Source: an uncultured cyanobacterium (GTDB taxonomy: Bacteria > Cyanobacteriota > Cyanobacteriia > Cyanobacteriales > Cyanobacteriaceae). From it: DNA of 64,000 nucleotides. Below, one piece after another: positions 25,460 to 32,779 of the stretch (within the stretch, counting starts at the first letter, position 1; every line of letters begins with the position of its first letter). Below the pieces are notes generated by a model. The model saw nothing but the letters and a program-made list of their open reading frames with translations, was not told the DNA's origin and did no database searches. The stretch is from contig CAVQBA010000004.1 of the NCBI GenBank assembly GCA_963710605.1, positions 1,280,001-1,344,000 of the forward strand. Direction: 5' to 3'. Position numbers and translations under genes: made by a program.

Positions 25460-26083
25460 ATGCAACTAAAATCGTTTTTATCTGTACTAATAAGTTTTAC
25501 AGTTTCCTTGGGAGCAGTTGTTAGTATCACCCCACCTAGTTCGGCTAATCTAACTCTCGATGAGTTTTCATGTAAACAAAATGAAGATGGAGATTATGTA
25601 ACATATATTAGGTTTAAAACAGAACCTAATGTATATTATGAGTTAGTACGTTGGATTTATTATCAGACAGATGAATGGTCATTTCAAAGACGTTGTAATC
25701 ATGTAACTAAAAAATTTCAAGCTTTATCGGATAATGGCTGGTTAAATGAAATTGGTATAGGTCGTTCAAATGGTCAACCTATTCTCTGTGGCGTTCGCTC
25801 ACCCCAAGATTATTGTCCTAGTGGTAATGTTGATAATATTTTAGTTACCCTTCCTCCAGGATCGAATCCTGACTTCGCAAGACATAGATTATGGGATGTG
25901 GGAAATCGATCGAGAAAAGAGCCACTTTCTTTATGTGGTGCGGGGGACAACTGCGAAAAGCTGATAACGATCGAGAATGGACAACGTTATCTGAATATGG
26001 ATGTACTTAAAAGAATCATTAGAGAAAATGAAACGCCAATTGATGAAAAAAGTTTTAATTCGATCGATACTCTGGTTGATTAA
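25460..26083 (+). CDS. COP23 (circadian oscillating protein) domain secreted protein
   Basis: Signal peptide; FSC...VRW...WSFQRRC...KFQ...GRSNGQPILC...ILVTL pattern. Confidence 0.8.
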   Translation: MQLKSFLSVLISFTVSLGAVVSITPPSSANLTLDEFSCKQNEDGDYVTYIRFKTEPNVYYELVRWIYYQTDEWSFQRRCNHVTKKFQALSDNGWLNEIGIGRSNGQPILCGVRSPQDYCPSGNVDNILVTLPPGSNPDFARHRLWDVGNRSRKEPLSLCGAGDNCEKLITIENGQRYLNMDVLKRIIRENETPIDEKSFNSIDTLVD

Positions 26084-26162
26084 AATATATAGCAAGTAAC
26101 GAGTAAGGAGTGGACATCTCTACCACCGCTTACCCTTCTTTCAAAGGATGGAGAACTCTATT

Positions 26163-26374
26163 TATAGTCGTTTAAAATAACAATGAGACAATTTTCGAGA
26201 TTAAGTTTTAGTTTAATTTATTAAACGGTATCTATTAGCCTTGTCAATTTATTGCAAGGCGGGTTTCGGGTTCTTCTTTTTACTATTATTTATACTGTCT
26301 CAAGCGGTCGGACCCCGCGACGACGGCAAGTCGCAAGGGAACGCCGACCAAGAAAACTTAATTAAAACAACTAT
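26163..26374. mobile_element. MITE-like element with a nested GC-rich short dispersed repeat
   Basis: Ends TATAGTCGTTT / AAACAACTATA; internal part is homologous to 10085-10200. Confidence 0.55.
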
Positions 26375-26447
26375 AACTGTTTAAAACAACTCGTTTACTA
26401 CTATATTTTCAAGATTAAATAATCATTTTCTAATTAAATTTATCGCT

Positions 26448-27917
26448 ATGTTTAATTTTATTAAAAAGTTTCCTCTCGCCATATTATTATTAAGTGTAAC
26501 AGTAGCAACAAACCTAGTACAATTTCCAGTAGTCGCACAGCAGTTAAACAGCTCTGAGGTGTTGGATAAGTTGAAAAAATTATCAGTACGTATAGAGGGG
26601 TTACAAAGTGGTTCTGGAGTGATTGTGGATCGTAAAAAAGATGGAGATGGCTATATTTATACTGTGCTGACAAATGCTCATGTAGTTGCCAGTTCTGGTT
26701 CTTATCAGGTTATAACTTATCATGATGAAAAATATGATGTTTCTTACGACCAGATTAGGGTTTTTGAAAATCAGATCGATTTAGCAATTTTACAATTTAA
26801 CACTCAGACATACTATCAAGTAGCTGAATTAGGAGATTCTAGCCGTCTTCAGTCTCATGATGATGTTTGGTTTGGAGGTTGGGCAGAAGACATAAACCAG
26901 AATTCCGATAAACCTTCTGATATACAATACGACACAAGAATTATCAAACTGCTCGATCGTCAAGAAGAATCTTGGTGTACAGAGAAAACAATATTCTGTG
27001 GTTATAAAATTTTTTATAAAGAACCTGGACATCTGGGTATGTCTGGTTCACCTGTGTTAGATCTTAGCGGTTATTTAATTGCTATTCATGGTGGCTCACA
27101 TTGTCCAGGTGGTGGACATAGTTGCGGAGGTTGGGCAATCCCGATTAATACTTATAGAGAAAGTGAAGGAATTGACTTTAAACCTCTTCCACCAAAAATT
27201 TTACCACTACAAAATTTGGTTGCTCTGGGGGAAAGCAAAGTAAAAAATGGAGACTATGCAGGGGCGATCGTCGATTACACTAAAGCTATAGAAGAAAATC
27301 CTCGTAACTTAGATGCTTACTACAGAAGGGGTGAGGCTTATTATGCCCTGAAGAAGTATCCAGAAGCAATTAATGACTTTGACGAATATTTAGGTCTGAA
27401 TCCCAACAACTACTATGGCTACTTCTATCGAGGTCGTATTTATGCCGATCGACAAGATTACCAAAGGGCAATTTCTGACTATAATAAAGCCATTGAGATT
27501 AAATCCGACTTCGCTAAGGCTTACAATAACAGAGGTTATGCTCGTTTCCAATTAGGAGATACGCAAGGGGCGATCGTTGATTACACCGAAGCGATCGAAC
27601 TTAATTCAGATTATGCTAAAGCCTATTACAATCGTGGATTAGTTTTTGGTCGTTATTTACAAAAGTACGAAGACGCTTTAGCCGACTTAAATCAAGCAAT
27701 TAATTTAAATCCAGAAAATGCAGATGCTTATTTTATCAGAGGCATCATATACAATTCAGTTGAAAAAAGAGATCGAGCAATTAATGACTTTACCGAAGCT
27801 ATTCGTCTTCGCCCCCATTTTACAGAATCTTACGAAAACCGAGCTTTAGTTTATTACTTTATAAATGAACGTGATTTAGCTCTCAAAGACTTAGAAGATG
27901 CTCTCGATTCTTTTTAA
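26448..27917 (+). CDS. Secreted trypsin-like serine protease with TPR repeats
   Basis: Catalytic triad TNAHVV / DLAIL / GMSGSP; repeated AYxNRG TPR units; signal peptide. Confidence 0.92.
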   Translation: MFNFIKKFPLAILLLSVTVATNLVQFPVVAQQLNSSEVLDKLKKLSVRIEGLQSGSGVIVDRKKDGDGYIYTVLTNAHVVASSGSYQVITYHDEKYDVSYDQIRVFENQIDLAILQFNTQTYYQVAELGDSSRLQSHDDVWFGGWAEDINQNSDKPSDIQYDTRIIKLLDRQEESWCTEKTIFCGYKIFYKEPGHLGMSGSPVLDLSGYLIAIHGGSHCPGGGHSCGGWAIPINTYRESEGIDFKPLPPKILPLQNLVALGESKVKNGDYAGAIVDYTKAIEENPRNLDAYYRRGEAYYALKKYPEAINDFDEYLGLNPNNYYGYFYRGRIYADRQDYQRAISDYNKAIEIKSDFAKAYNNRGYARFQLGDTQGAIVDYTEAIELNSDYAKAYYNRGLVFGRYLQKYEDALADLNQAINLNPENADAYFIRGIIYNSVEKRDRAINDFTEAIRLRPHFTESYENRALVYYFINERDLALKDLEDALDSF

Positions 27918-28279
27918 AAGCCAAAAAAATACAAGAGGTTATCAACGAACTTTAGACCGTATTAGACAAATTTTAGGGGAGAGAATAATATTAGTATATA
28001 AAAACTAATAGAGATAAATCCATTACCTTATATAAATATTGTACCGAATCTCCTTTGCTCTCCTTTGCTACAACTATAGTTGTTTAAATTAAGATTAGGA
28101 TAGCGTTGATAATCGTAAAAATGTGAGCCTATACCCCGACAAGCAATTATCATTGCAAGTCTCCCCTTTGAAGGGGAGGGGCTGTCTCCTGAATTCATTT
28201 CAGGTGAATGGAATACGCCCAGTGAGAAACAAGAGGGGTTGCCGAAAGTATAAGTAATCACAAATTCATTCGGTTATAA

Positions 28280-28774
28280 TTATTGCAACTGTTGTAGTTG
28301 TCTTTCAGCCTCGCTAATCTGTTGTTGAATCTGTTGTAGTTGAGCTTCAGCAATTTGTTGTTGAACTTCTAACAGTTGTGTTTCTTTTTTAAGACGCTCC
28401 ATTCGTATTTGGTGAGAATTCGATCGTCCAGGTTGATATATAACACCTAGATAGACAGTAACGTTACTAGAATCAAGAGTATTAAGTCCTACTGACATAT
28501 TAAAACCCCAATCGTTTTCAGTATTAGCTGGTGTGTAAATCGGATTATCTAAGGGATAATTAGGGACATTAAACTCATTAATATTAGTATTTTGAACGTT
28601 ATTTTGATTGGGTATTTGAATAACATCGTTAAAGTCACCATCGATCGTCGATGCTGGATTAGCCGTTTGTTCTGCTGTTTGAGCAAAAATAGGTTTAACT
28701 GCTACTCCTTCTAAGAAAAAAAAAGCTAATATTATGGAAGTAATCCAAAAGGATAATTTTTCATTCAATTTCAT
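28280..28774 (-). CDS. Secreted protein: Asn/Gln-rich region, amphipathic beta-hairpin, C-terminal Gln-rich coiled coil
   Basis: Signal ending IFA; WGFNMSVGLN-TLDSS-NVTVYLGVIYQP; heptad Q/L tail; ATGA overlap with the upstream gene. Confidence 0.75.
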   Translation of the reverse strand: MKLNEKLSFWITSIILAFFFLEGVAVKPIFAQTAEQTANPASTIDGDFNDVIQIPNQNNVQNTNINEFNVPNYPLDNPIYTPANTENDWGFNMSVGLNTLDSSNVTVYLGVIYQPGRSNSHQIRMERLKKETQLLEVQQQIAEAQLQQIQQQISEAERQLQQLQ

Positions 28775-29262
28775 CTGACATCAATAACTAAGATTTGATT
28801 AATTTGACCGCTACCTGAGATATTTTGGACAACTTGTGTATTTAATCCGATAAACTCAACTTTAACTAAGGAGTTAGCTGGATAGTAATTCCCGCTGATA
28901 GCAACTCTATGTCTTCCTTTAGCTAAAAAAGGTGACAAATTAATTTGCGTACTATGCTTGTTAAGTGTTTGAATTACTTTCCCATCAAGTTTAATATCGC
29001 CTGTTAATTCGGCGGTAACGTTTGGGGTAGCAACTGTTAATATATGAGGTTGTCTCAGGGCTGTGGCATCTAGGGTAACTGTTGTTTGTTGAATGCTTTG
29101 GTTTAATCCGAAAAGTCGATCTACCTCTTTAAACTCTTCTCGATCGCGATCGACTTGATTTGTTTCCAAAGTGGGAAAAATAGAGTTATCATCTATATTA
29201 GGAAATTCTATACAAAATGGTATAGAAACAATAATAACTAAAGAAAAAATTTGATAATTCAT
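28771..29262 (-). CDS. Exported hypothetical protein with predicted all-beta C-terminal domain
   Basis: Hydrophobic N-terminus; alternating beta pattern (HILTV, GDIKLDG, QINLSPFL, VKVEF, ILVIDVR). Confidence 0.75.
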   Translation of the reverse strand: MNYQIFSLVIIVSIPFCIEFPNIDDNSIFPTLETNQVDRDREEFKEVDRLFGLNQSIQQTTVTLDATALRQPHILTVATPNVTAELTGDIKLDGKVIQTLNKHSTQINLSPFLAKGRHRVAISGNYYPANSLVKVEFIGLNTQVVQNISGSGQINQILVIDVR

Positions 29263-29392
29263 TAGTTTTAACTCAAAGAATATTTTTTATTTGCTAATTG
29301 AATGTCGTTATTACCTAAGAGGATAAGTCGCTCAAAAATTAATTGATTATCCTCTTAGATACGATCGAGCAATGAAATATAGAATCTAGAGT

Positions 29393-29776
29393 TTAATATT
29401 CAAAACGATCGGCGGGATTGATAATGTCCACAATTACTCCGTTTTTAAACTGAATTGTTTGACTGTCAATTCCAGTTTCATTACCTTCACTTTCTTTAAT
29501 AGTTTGATTCACCTCTCTATTTTGAGTGGGTGTGCCTCTGCCTCCCGTGTTTAGTTGTACCCCTGTCGTCGATTGTACATTACCAGTACAGCGAGGATGG
29601 CTAGTCATTTTTCTTTTTGTTTCTCTGTTTGCAGGTTGCTTTGAGCCACTCAAATTAGCCTGAATAGACATATCACTTTGGATACATTGGGCATTAACAG
29701 CATTAGGGAAAATGGTTGCACAACAAACAAAAGCAAACAATACCAATTTTGGGTTTAAAAATTTTGTGAAATCCAT
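29393..29776 (-). CDS. Small secreted protein with two internal Gln/Asn/Gly repeats
   Basis: Signal ending VNA; IQSDMSIQANLSGSKQP aligns with VQSTTGVQLNTGGRGTP. Confidence 0.8.
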   Translation of the reverse strand: MDFTKFLNPKLVLFAFVCCATIFPNAVNAQCIQSDMSIQANLSGSKQPANRETKRKMTSHPRCTGNVQSTTGVQLNTGGRGTPTQNREVNQTIKESEGNETGIDSQTIQFKNGVIVDIINPADRFEY

Positions 29777-29901
29777 ATACTTTACAAGATCAATTTGTAT
29801 GCGTTAAAAAAAGATAAATCGGCTATTATTTATAATGAATAGTGCTAGTAAAACCAACACTATTCGTGAAATCTCCAATATAGAGATTAGACTCAAGATT
29901 A

Positions 29902-30213
29902 TTAACGATTATTGACTCTTCTTTGAGGACGAATTACAGAGCGTTGGTCGCTTTCTTGGACGCAAATATTTCGTTCCCCAACAATGTCACAGTATTGGTC
30001 TTGTTTTTGAATACCAACTTCTGTACGAGAAAAACCATCACGTTCGGTTTTTGAATCTTGATTTGTTCGTTGATAGCTGCTACTATCTGTTCCTGTAATC
30101 ACGCTTGTTTGACGAGAGTCTTGCGCAGTGCCAGTATCAGCAAAAGTAGGTGATAATGGAATCGCTCCAAAAATGGCACAAAAAAGTACAGCAGAAATTA
30201 AATTTTTGTTCAT
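29902..30213 (-). CDS. Small secreted protein with two 24-aa Gln-ladder repeats
   Basis: AAGGAG SD; signal ending TFA; pattern Q-x3-Q-x3-I-x-G-x2-(S/N)-x3-Q-x3-Q-x-S occurs twice. Confidence 0.82.
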   Translation of the reverse strand: MNKNLISAVLFCAIFGAIPLSPTFADTGTAQDSRQTSVITGTDSSSYQRTNQDSKTERDGFSRTEVGIQKQDQYCDIVGERNICVQESDQRSVIRPQRRVNNR

Positions 30214-30487
30214 GATTGTTCTCCTTATTGAGAATAAATTTATTAGCCTTTCGACTATAATCCCATTTTGCCTCAGTCTTTTTTATGTGTCGATGTAGAT
30301 AGAAAATTTTAATTAGGCTAGAAAAATTTTATTTTAAATTCAATTCTAGTCTAAATTATATTGACAGGTAAAACTACTAGTTTGTGTAGAGTACAAGTAT
30401 TTTAATTACCCGATTCGAAAGAAATTTTAGCCCTAAATAATATAGATATATTTAATATTTTTAGGACTAAAGTCCTTACTACAAACT

Positions 30488-30808
30488 TTAATTTTTAAGT
30501 ACTTGTGCGATCGCTTTTTTCTGTTCGTCGTCGTATTGCCAACGTTTGAGAAATTTTTGGTATTCTCCTTCTCCTTGCTCGATTGTTTCTTGTAATTTTT
30601 GAGTTTTTGTTTCTGTTTGAGCTAGATTTAATTTGTCGATTAATTCTTTACTTCTTTGAGTTACTCTCGCTGATTTATTTGCCATTTCTTCATCATTGTT
30701 GCGGTGATGGGCAAGTTTCATGGCAGTTGACATAGCCACGTTTTTAACTAATAATTCGCTGACAATTTCAGGTGAGCTTTTTAAACCATCAATAATTCCT
30801 GTAGATTG
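30488..30808 (-). pseudogene. Probable 3' remnant of a hypothetical gene
   Basis: Protein-like frame (GIIDGLKSSPEIVSELLVKNVAMSTAM...FLKRWQYD) runs upstream of the GTG at 30739 to a stop at 30809-30811, with no SD or ATG. Confidence 0.5.
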
Positions 30809-31148
30809 TCATCAACCCAAGAAACCAAGTCTAAATCTAGATTGACTTCTAGCTCAATTTATTACCCCGAACTGAGGTTATTTACTAATATGAGAGATGA
30901 AAAAGAACACTACAGATAAAATCAAGTTAAAAGTGATTAAGTAAAGGTTAAATATTATTCAACCCCTACAGTCGTTTAGTTATTTAAAAAAAATTGATGA
31001 CGATTATTCTGCTGTCAAAAGTTTGTTGATAGCTCTTCATTTGGGTAATTAACATAACATTAGTTACCACTCGTGTTGTTCACATTAAAACTACTAGCGA
31101 GACGTTATTTTTTTTTGTCTCATCAATCGTCACAAATCAATTTTTCAG

Positions 31149-31181
31149 ATCAAATACTATGGTATTACTCAATGATTACAC
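31149..31181 (+). repeat. Copy A of a ~30-50 bp three-copy repeat
   Basis: ATCAAATACTATGGTATTACTCAATGATTACAC; 28/33 identical to 35288-35320. Confidence 0.8.
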
Positions 31182-31308
31182 GTGTTGTTGCGATTAAATT
31201 AACTATCAACTCTTAATTTTTAACTTTTAACTACAAAGGTGGGCAATGCCCACCCTACATTTTTGATTAAAGACGATCGATTCAGATCGAAATATTGTCA
31301 ATTGTTAA

Positions 31309-32779
31309 TTATCTTCCGCCGACGGTAATTGAATCAACTTTAATATGAGGTTGCCCAACAGTAACATAAACACTACCGCTAACTGAGCCACAGAAACCAG
31401 CCGCCAAACCAATGTCTTTAGATGACATCGAGATTTTGGTCATAATTTCTTTAGCTTCACCGATAAGAGTCGCACCTTTAAGAGGTTTGGTAATTTTACC
31501 GTTTTCAATGAGATAGGCTTCATCAACACCAAAGTTAAATTCACCAGTATGACCAACACTTCCGCCACCCATTTTTTTACAATAGATACCTTTGTCCACA
31601 GAAGAGAATATATCATCATTACTAAATTCTCCAGGAGCAATATAGGTGTTACGCATCCGAGATGCCGCAGGAAAACTATAGTTTTGTCTTCTGCCACTAC
31701 CAGTACGAGGATGACCTGTGCGTAATGAACCTGCTCTGTCAGCTAAGAAATTTTTTAAGATACCGTTTTCGATTAATAAGGTACGTTGAGGTGCCATACC
31801 TTCATCGTCCATATCGATCGTACCGAAAGCATTTTCAGATAATCCTTCATCCCACGCAGTTAGGTTTTCATGAGCAATTTTTTCACCTTTTTTATCGATG
31901 AAAGGAGTACTCTTACGTTCAATTTGAGTAGTTTCGAATAAATGTCCACAGGCTTCATGGAAGATAACTCCACCAAATTGATTAGCCATAATTACAGGAT
32001 ATTGACCTGATTCGACATAATCAGCGTAAAGCATTTTACCAGCTGAATCGGCTACTTCTTCAGCAACATCATTATAATTCCAAGTACGTAAAAAGTCTGG
32101 ATTGCTTGTGTCTCCATCTCTTTTACCGATCGAAGAACGATTATCACCATCAGCACAAAGAAGATTATAACCGACTGATTGAGTTAAACGAATATCACGA
32201 GCAAAAATACCATCACTAGACGCAACTAAAACTTCTTGCCAGTCACGGAAATAAGCGGCACGACGAGATTGGACATGATTCGCTTTTTTAGCTAATTGTT
32301 GATTAGCACCAAGTAACACATCTCCCATTTCTTGCATATTACTACAGTTACCTAACCATGCGTCTTTGTTCTTTAAGGTTGGCATAATCTCGGAACATTT
32401 CTAAATTGATTTCGGGAACAAAAGATGCTCCAGAAGGTGTGTTGAGAGCTAAGATTGATAATGCTTTTTCTAAGGCTAGTTTTAATCCGGTAAAAGAAAG
32501 ATCGTTAGTGCTGACATAACATTCACCTTTACCTTTAAAAACTCTTACCCCTGCACCTGTGGCGAGTCTGGGGGTGATACTAGTAATACGATCGTCTTCG
32601 GCTAAACAACTAATATAATTACTTTTTTCGAGGAAAAATTCGACAAAATCCGCACCTGCCGCCCTTCCTAAACCTAGTAAGGTGGAAAGTGGTTTTTCCC
32701 ATGTTAAATCAAAACGATCGTGACTAGGACTATAGGATAAATTAGGAATTTCACGGGATACTAGTAAGGTTGGAGACAT
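31309..32779 (-). pseudogene. tldD: TldD/PmbA family metalloprotease split by a +1 frameshift (real or sequencing error)
   Basis: N-part [10 protein letters not shown]...GAGVRVF; C-part FHEACGH, GSGRRQ, RMRNTY, CGSVSG. Removing one base near 32380 gives ...[12 protein letters not shown]. Confidence 0.85.

Follow-up and report, generated by a model that had tools for sequence, protein, structure and literature searches.

Four small genes, here called A, B, C, and D, lie head to tail in the same orientation on the minus strand of a 64,000-nucleotide stretch of DNA from an uncultured cyanobacterium (positions 1,280,001 to 1,344,000 of contig CAVQBA010000004.1, assembly GCA_963710605.1; this whole stretch is the window). 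An earlier note made from the letters alone had placed such a cluster at 28280 to 30213, and the open reading frames (ORFs) are found at exactly that span. The firm result of the present analysis is that these genes constitute a real, unannotated cyanobacterial operon of proteins exported by the Sec route. The best reading of the operon, which is put forward only tentatively, is that it encodes an undescribed fiber or polymer assembly system acting outside the cytoplasm. Several features together point to a polymerizing subunit accompanied by helpers, namely the tandem amplification of A, its long Gln/Asn/Gly/Thr strands that lack a core and keep a conserved register, the constant presence of B, and the frequent presence of an immunoglobulin (Ig)-like partner.

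The gene order is conserved well beyond the window. A set of 46 loci anchored on D was assembled from the window, two relatives, and a pattern scan of species genomes that contributed the other 43, all of them cyanobacterial by record title, and the ORFs of these loci were clustered. Genes A, B, C, and D occur in that order in 31 of the 46 loci, which bears out a check that had been named beforehand. Three further loci carry B and D without C, one has A, C, and D, one loses its upstream part at a contig end, and in ten D stands alone by ORF clustering. The carriers among the Nostocales are Dolichospermum, Aphanizomenon, Nodularia, Raphidiopsis, Fischerella, Calothrix, and Rivularia, and the others are Prochloron, Coleofasciculaceae, Leptolyngbya-like metagenome-assembled genomes (MAGs), Chamaesiphon, and Aphanothece. 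Tandem copies of A number from one to five inside 4-kb flanks, and up to 11 matches are found per genome.

A fifth secreted family, E, sits between A and B in 26 of these loci. It was first seen as two clusters (labeled A2 in 14 loci and c7 in 13), which form one family when compared with hhalign (96.8%, E 2e-10). No member of E is present at the window locus or at its nearest relatives (L007, L008, L009, and L019). The full form of the system, E included, is A(n)-E-B-C-D, and the window holds a reduced A-B-C-D form without E. The parts of the unit can also be separated. In five genomes with a stand-alone D, C is found elsewhere in four and A elsewhere in three, and in genome G293 an A(5)-E-B block lies approximately 200 kb from D.

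The distribution of the families was assessed in an evenly drawn sample of 401 cyanobacterial genomes, with matches counted at E<=1e-5. Family B is the most widespread (20 genomes), followed by C (17), A (9, a lower bound given how divergent this family is), and D (8); at least one family is present in 25 genomes, and B and C occur together in 13. All nine A-positive genomes and seven of the eight D-positive genomes also carry B, the eighth D match being a fragment. Only two genomes, that of the window and G276, score for all four families. Related genomes in such a sample are not independent, and hence no co-occurrence statistic is offered. Among other genomes of the window's own taxonomic family, D was found in none of the 19 searched, and A, B, and C in none of the six searched for each. 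Overall, the module is restricted to cyanobacteria, modular, rare, and scattered.

Family A, the putative repeat subunit, comprises 141 clusters by profile search. Wherever the source organism is named it is a cyanobacterium, except for two MAG records labeled Methylacidiphilales. A typical member has two repeats of approximately 33 residues spaced 47 residues apart, and one subfamily has three repeats. Self-alignment reveals strong internal repeats in the homologs P0016 (z 16) and P0038 (z 15), with 0 of 200 shuffles scoring as well in each case. Conservation of the Gln register, which had also been proposed as a check, is evident in residues Q56 and Q103 of P0016, which occupy equivalent repeat positions and are nearly invariant across 111 sequences. 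In an AlphaFold2 (AF2) model, P0016 folds into two hairpins made up of four strands, each 17-19 residues long, and the core reaches predicted local distance difference test (pLDDT) values of 75-81.

The window copy of A begins with a Sec-type signal, followed by a mature protein of approximately 78 residues that is rich in Gln, Ser, and Thr (Q 14%, N 5%, G 5%). It belongs to the family by profile match (6.6e-27), shares 14-39% identity with the other members, and is the sole copy in its genome. The second of its hairpin turns lies inside a C-x8-C pattern, as it does in L007, L010-L012, and L027. Window A is a degenerate, single-copy member of a tandemly amplified family of two-hairpin repeat proteins.

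Database names for A vary. Clusters are called 'hypothetical', 'filamentous hemagglutinin', 'opacity protein-like surface antigen', 'autotransporter', and, once in UniRef, 'Curlin'. The public labels of P0018, P0038, P0050, and P0121, one of which is 'outer membrane autotransporter protein', are inconsistent automatic names. No Pfam assignment is recorded for the listed members, and P0038, P0050, and P0121 gave no Pfam match above the cut-off when scanned.

Family B consists of 41 clusters, and every one with a source name is called hypothetical. The mature window protein begins with Gln-Cys, and the family is marked by two nearly invariant cysteines (C31 and C63) and a conserved C-terminal strand motif, V-x-V-D-V-x-N-P-A-D. 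Some B homologs have a lipobox-like A-G/C sequence. In two Synechococcales MAGs, a different secreted protein of 121-123 residues precedes D (L029:3367-3738 and L049:3300-3665); it aligns weakly with B and has a C-terminal V-V-V-D-V-x-I-P motif in common with it.

The all-beta domain that had been noticed in the cluster is the confidently modeled part of C. This protein has a hydrophobic N-terminus, a variable linker, and a beta-sandwich of approximately 107 residues that resembles Ig and fibronectin type III (Fn3) domains. The AF2 model has a mean pLDDT of 80.4, and residues 57-163 form a block of nine strands at pLDDT 93-98, on which basis C is modeled with confidence as an Ig/Fn3-like beta-sandwich. 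Structural matches are of a generic Ig-like kind (best Foldseek E 1.7e-3, best VIA Z 6.5). In two Nostocales genomes, C follows two secreted Ala-rich repeat proteins with a motif like A-x-T-A-x-G-N-A-T-A rather than A, E, or B (L059:1963-3180 and L060:2106-3328). Since these Ala-rich proteins are unrelated to the usual partners, C may serve more than one kind of client.

Family D is the best conserved, with homologs 46-69% identical to the window protein. A signal peptide is followed by a Gln/Asn-rich region of approximately 55 residues, an amphipathic beta-hairpin motif, and a heptad coiled coil. As read from the sequence, hydrophobic and polar residues alternate across the hairpin (residues 86-118). 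The conserved hairpin motif is NTENDFGFNxSVGxNTLDSSNVTVYLGxIYQPGR, and an invariant P-x-N-x-E-N-D-x-G...G...P-G appears to flank two strands in which this alternation is strict. In the coiled-coil stretch of 47 residues, 10 of the 14 a/d heptad positions are hydrophobic. The D start and the C stop share 4 nucleotides (nt; 28771-28774), which fits the translational coupling of this hairpin plus coiled-coil protein to the all-beta protein that the earlier note had described.

The D family amounts to 15 clusters among 5.8 billion proteins, and an exhaustive hidden Markov model (HMM) search of 1.84 billion proteins returned 30 representatives at E<=1e-3. In the ESM Atlas, the nearest cluster to both window D and its homolog P0012 is one of cyanobacterial hypothetical proteins. 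Short forms of 98-102 residues, called D', occur at L057:2763-3071 (minus strand) and L058:3770-4066 and consist of a Gln/Asn-rich N-terminal part and a basic tail, with neither hairpin nor coiled coil. The N-terminal segment of D looks like half an A repeat, judging from a reading of the residues and a weak hhalign alignment (41.7%) that includes the signal peptides. As evidence for kinship, the alignments of A with B (56.9%) and of A with D (41.7%) were rejected because both take in the signal peptides.

Export of the products was judged by sequence features rather than by a dedicated signal-peptide predictor. Proteins A, B, and D each have a hydrophobic h-region and an AXA-type cleavage site (TFA/DT, VNA/QC, and IFA/QT, respectively). 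The earlier note had assigned export signals to all four proteins, and this holds for these three. The window copy of C has a hydrophobic N-terminus but lacks Lys and Arg, and so has no basic n-region, and it lacks an AXA site, although its homologs have canonical signal peptides. The combined share of Gln, Asn, Gly, Ser, and Thr in the mature proteins is 45% for A, 47% for B, and 44% for D, compared with 31% for a set of 19 long window ORFs.

Searches against existing collections support the view that the cluster has not been described. No Pfam or NCBIfam family scored above its cut-off for any of the four window proteins, none of the seven proteins compared with PHROGs and PADLOC found a match, and profile searches of the PDB with A, B, C, and D gave nothing better than E 0.08. 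A literature search, whose scope did not extend to subscription journals or preprint supplements, turned up no paper describing the module. The proposal of an undescribed cyanobacterial cluster of exported proteins has thus held up, in the form of a conserved module whose families lie outside Pfam and NCBIfam.

Features of the cluster and its surroundings (window positions)
Feature	Position	Strand	Details
Gene A	29902-30213	minus	103-residue ORF
Gene B	29393-29776	minus	127-residue ORF
Gene C	28771-29262	minus	163-residue ORF
Gene D	28280-28774	minus	164-residue ORF
RNA stem-loop, A-B intergenic	29837..29865	minus	perfect 13-bp stem; fold of 29777-29901, z -3.0, 0/200 shuffles equal
RNA stem-loop, B-C intergenic	29312..29361	minus	long stem (~15 bp); fold of 29263-29392, z -3.9, 0/200 shuffles equal
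Inverted repeat	28161-28190		G+C-rich, ~100 nt past D stop
COP23-family protein and protease-TPR genes	25460-27917	plus	convergent with D
TldD/PmbA metallopeptidase gene	31309-32779	minus	split: domain 1 at 32348-32779, domains 2-3 at 31309-32385

The spacers between A and B (125 nt) and between B and C (130 nt) can each fold into an RNA stem-loop. The one between A and B is a possible attenuator or stabilizer, through which the amount of A relative to the downstream gene products would be set. A search of Rfam over positions 27000-31500 gave no matches, and no sequencing run, RNA runs included, is listed as containing positions 28200-30300. A promoter and terminator scan was uninformative as to promoters, since its 15 promoter-like sites compare with 10.7 +/- 3.5 in shuffled sequences. 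The G+C content of the cluster (0.33-0.35) is the same as that of its flanks and therefore does not indicate recent transfer.

Downstream of the cluster, the inverted repeat scores as terminator-like on the plus strand and folds into a 7-bp stem when read on the minus strand, and the convergent genes may share it as a bidirectional terminator. The genes that converge on D encode two proteins, one of the COP23 family and one a secreted, trypsin-like protease with six fused tetratricopeptide (TPR) repeats. These neighbors are not conserved beside the cluster elsewhere, where PIN, MltA, and CemA genes flank it. On the other side, the two overlapping ORFs of the split TldD/PmbA gene reflect a frameshift, which is either a pseudogene or an assembly error.

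If the products do form an assembly system, the following arrangement can be proposed. All of the proteins would leave the cytoplasm by the Sec route. Members of A would be the polymerizing subunits, each contributing two or three long beta-hairpin or beta-arch repeats that are rich in Gln, Asn, Gly, and Thr and have no hydrophobic core of their own. Family B, the most widely kept and the bearer of one conserved Cys pair, might act as a base, adaptor, or nucleating subunit, and the Ig-like sandwich of C as a periplasmic chaperone or adaptor. D could be an optional envelope anchor that oligomerizes through its coiled coil, inserts or docks through its amphipathic hairpin, and displays the Gln/Asn-rich N-terminal segment akin to half an A repeat. 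Together they would build a beta-rich fiber or layer that lies on the cell envelope or within it.

A number of observations weigh against this reading and must be taken into account. The paired Gln/Asn/Gly repeats that had been claimed for two of the window proteins are clear in the A homologs, as described above, but mature window A shows none of significance (z 0.5, a score reached by 59 of 200 shuffles), and the internal repeat of window B is weak (z 3.7; 1 of 200 shuffles equal). The first turn of window A reads G-T-D-S, not G-x-G-N. Confidence in the A model is modest (mean pLDDT 63.6 for P0016), and a Foldseek search of the PDB with it found nothing significant. The first rows of that search are FapC, FapC again, and a CsgA fibril, and at E 0.16-2.4, starting with FapC at 0.16, and template modeling (TM) scores of approximately 0.1 they carry no weight. 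The conserved pairs of Cys in A, E, and B would suit disulfide-stapled proteins that are small and folded just as well as unfolded amyloid precursors. The module has no gene for an outer-membrane channel. Curlin_rpt was not detected at E<=10 in any of 34 A-family members (0/26 and 0/8), and hhalign comparisons of the A, B, C, and D profiles with E. coli CsgA, CsgB, CsgC, and CsgF gave probabilities of at most 1.3%. Finally, the roles given to each protein, a location beyond the inner membrane, and polymerization itself, amyloid or otherwise, are what we infer. A four-copy homo-oligomer prediction for residues 25-116 of P0016 scored 0.03 against a mark of 0.42 and counts neither for nor against.

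The role of D requires particular caution. Genomes G175, G303, and G268 (99% complete) carry A(4-7)-E-B-C without an adjoining D, and no D was found anywhere in these three genomes at E<=1e-5, which likewise counts against the proposed arrangement. Because these genomes keep A, E, B, and C without D, and because L057 and L058 have only the short D', the idea that D is an obligatory pore or anchor had to be dropped. The one-to-one assignment of roles that was first suggested, with a major subunit, a nucleator, a chaperone, and a pore, is only partly supported.

Some of the same observations would be expected if the products form a non-fibrous envelope complex, in which A through E are small structural or protective proteins that reside in the periplasm or associate with the outer membrane and work as discrete complexes instead of a polymer, such as a tether or a module for stress or desiccation. 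This alternative is possible, if on the unlikely side. It would explain why the module has Sec signals only and no outer-membrane channel, and the conserved Cys pairs of disulfide type that A, E, and B carry point to small folded proteins. The coiled coil of D has the length and type of periplasm-spanning, Lpp-like tethers, and the modular loss of C or D fits loosely coupled partners. However, the amplification of A to at least five divergent tandem copies and its long-strand repeats without a hydrophobic core are more typical of structural subunits, and a rare, patchy occurrence in 2-5% of sampled genomes argues against a housekeeping role in the envelope.

The fiber reading can also be narrowed to a cyanobacteria-only functional amyloid or fiber system that is like curli in its working and shares no parts with it. 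In such a system, the tandem two-hairpin Gln/Asn subunits of A would polymerize extracellularly on a base of B while C, as an Ig-like chaperone, keeps them soluble in the periplasm, and D, where it occurs, would be a new type of minimal envelope anchor or pore. This narrower version is judged unlikely, and so is the picture of D that goes with it, in which each protomer would supply one amphipathic hairpin and a periplasmic coiled coil and present an A-like template.

Another explanation, which must be rated improbable, is that A proteins are released soluble effectors that bind surfaces, ice, or polysaccharides, or act as Sec-dependent peptides that are antimicrobial or serve in competition, with B, C, and D working in maturation, immunity, or retention. 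Arrays of bacteriocin-like and binding proteins, too, typically consist of multi-copy, fast-diverging genes for small secreted proteins. Flat beta surfaces rich in Gln, Asn, and Thr resemble ice- and glycan-binding solenoids, and several carriers are MAGs whose record titles name cold or mat habitats. Ice-binding proteins do appear among the Foldseek rows, but these are not significant (E at least 0.16, TM approximately 0.1). Furthermore, the module has no double-glycine leader, ABC (ATP-binding cassette) exporter or peptidase, or immunity-like membrane protein, and PADLOC and PHROGs returned nothing.

Whichever reading applies, the five unannotated protein families make a clear and testable genetic unit. 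By record title, their carriers include bloom formers of ecological importance (Dolichospermum, Aphanizomenon, Nodularia, and Raphidiopsis), the true-branching Fischerella, and symbionts such as Prochloron. Should A turn out to polymerize, the module would be a fiber system built without a known secretion channel, with D as a minimal anchor of a new design; should it not, the five families would still point to an envelope module of a hitherto unknown kind.

There are several known systems with which the module can be compared. The EbfG proteins are the only cyanobacterial matrix or fiber proteins that the literature search turned up, and one of them reportedly forms amyloid. In the EbfG/PteB system of Synechococcus elongatus PCC 7942, the four small secreted proteins EbfG1-4 are likewise encoded in a cluster and are associated with matrix or biofilm, and they carry a double-glycine secretion motif (PMC4997328). 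Unlike EbfG, window proteins A, B, and D have classical AXA-site signal peptides that are conserved in homologs, in agreement with the earlier remark that no leader of the EbfG type is present. No gene for a peptidase-ABC exporter adjoins the window cluster.

The tandem subunit genes and the periplasmic Ig-like protein of the module are reminiscent of chaperone-usher pili, and fimbrial subunits and chaperones are found among the weak, generically Ig-like Foldseek rows for C (AggA at E 1.7e-3, SfaE, and Caf1M; TM approximately 0.2). In contrast to that system, C is a single Ig-like domain and not a two-domain, PapD-like protein, and the A model has two long hairpins instead of an Ig-like pilin fold. 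A gene for a large outer-membrane protein, as expected of an usher, is absent from all 46 loci.

In the Fap system of Pseudomonas (fapABCDEF), too, one operon groups several small secreted proteins with a repeat subunit. FapF joins beta-strands to a coiled coil, a layout that window D resembles on a much smaller scale. Unlike Fap, D has only 164 residues and a single hairpin, and the module has neither a 12-strand barrel of the FapF type nor a C39-like peptidase. Neither Pfam nor NCBIfam assigned a family, Fap or other, to the four window proteins, and Pfam detected none above its cut-off in 28 diverse members of B, C, D, and E, in searches that did not look for Fap genes in the rest of the genome.

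The most extensive comparison is with curli, the type VIII secretion system of E. coli and Salmonella (csgBAC-csgDEFG). The module shares with curli its small Sec-exported subunits, strand-turn-strand repeats rich in Gln, Asn, and Gly, tandem subunit genes, and an operon that includes a small Ig-like accessory protein, C. CsgC is likewise an Ig-like sandwich. Protein C may or may not be a chaperone of the CsgC type: its hhalign probability against E. coli CsgC is 1.2%, and CsgC is not among the structural matches listed for it. For D and E. coli CsgF the probability is 0.1%. The repeats of the module measure 33-47 residues compared with approximately 22 in curli, its proteins have conserved Cys pairs, and B, D, and E are new families. 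Pfam gave no match at E<=1 for window A or B, and window A has no Q-x-G-x-x-N on reading. That no Csg or Fap homology is recognizable, as the earlier note stated, was confirmed by the Pfam and NCBIfam searches.

A true but very divergent curli system, in which A is homologous to CsgA and CsgB and exported through a CsgG-family protein encoded elsewhere in the genome, was also considered and is very improbable. In its favor, a CsgG-family gene exists in the same genome, one three-repeat subfamily of A resembles curli repeats, and one A member bears the 'Curlin' label. The minimal curli repeat is given as X6QXGX2NX10 (PMC3521004), and the three-repeat subfamily, which occurs in other genomes only, fits it in 27 units of 8 proteins. 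P0038 aligns with E. coli CsgA with its QxGxGN[ST]A motifs in register, but the pairwise E is only 9e-4. A PDB profile search with A does not recover CsgA, and hhalign gives a probability of at most 0.6%. A unit-level hhalign comparison of the A subfamily with Csg repeats scored 9.1, compared with 4.1 +/- 1.8 for column-shuffled controls (1 of 100 as high). It was rejected because both repeat sets had been cut at the same Q.G..N anchor, and its probability is 0.4%.

The CsgG-family gene (PF03783, 193.8 bits, 270 residues) lies on contig 2 of the window's genome (G000:C2:168961-169584, L050), unlinked to the cluster and among unrelated genes, between a gene for an NAD-dependent epimerase-like protein and an unknown gene. 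The signal region of its product has no Cys and therefore no lipobox. The module itself contains no PF03783 member. Members of this family occur in 20 of 41 relatives as well as in Synechococcus elongatus, but were not found in G034 or G039, which are 99% complete and both carry B and D. According to Table 1 of PMC3521004, genuine CsgG accounts for only 26% of PF03783 hits. In the window's own genome (84.9% complete), Curlin_rpt (PF07012) was not found, and CsgE and CsgF (PF10627 and PF10614) had no matches at E<=1; E. coli controls were positive for Curlin_rpt and above the cut-off for CsgE and CsgF. With no Csg homology by profile, no CsgE or CsgF match in the genome, and an unlinked CsgG-family gene, the module is not a curli system, and its resemblance to curli is one of design.

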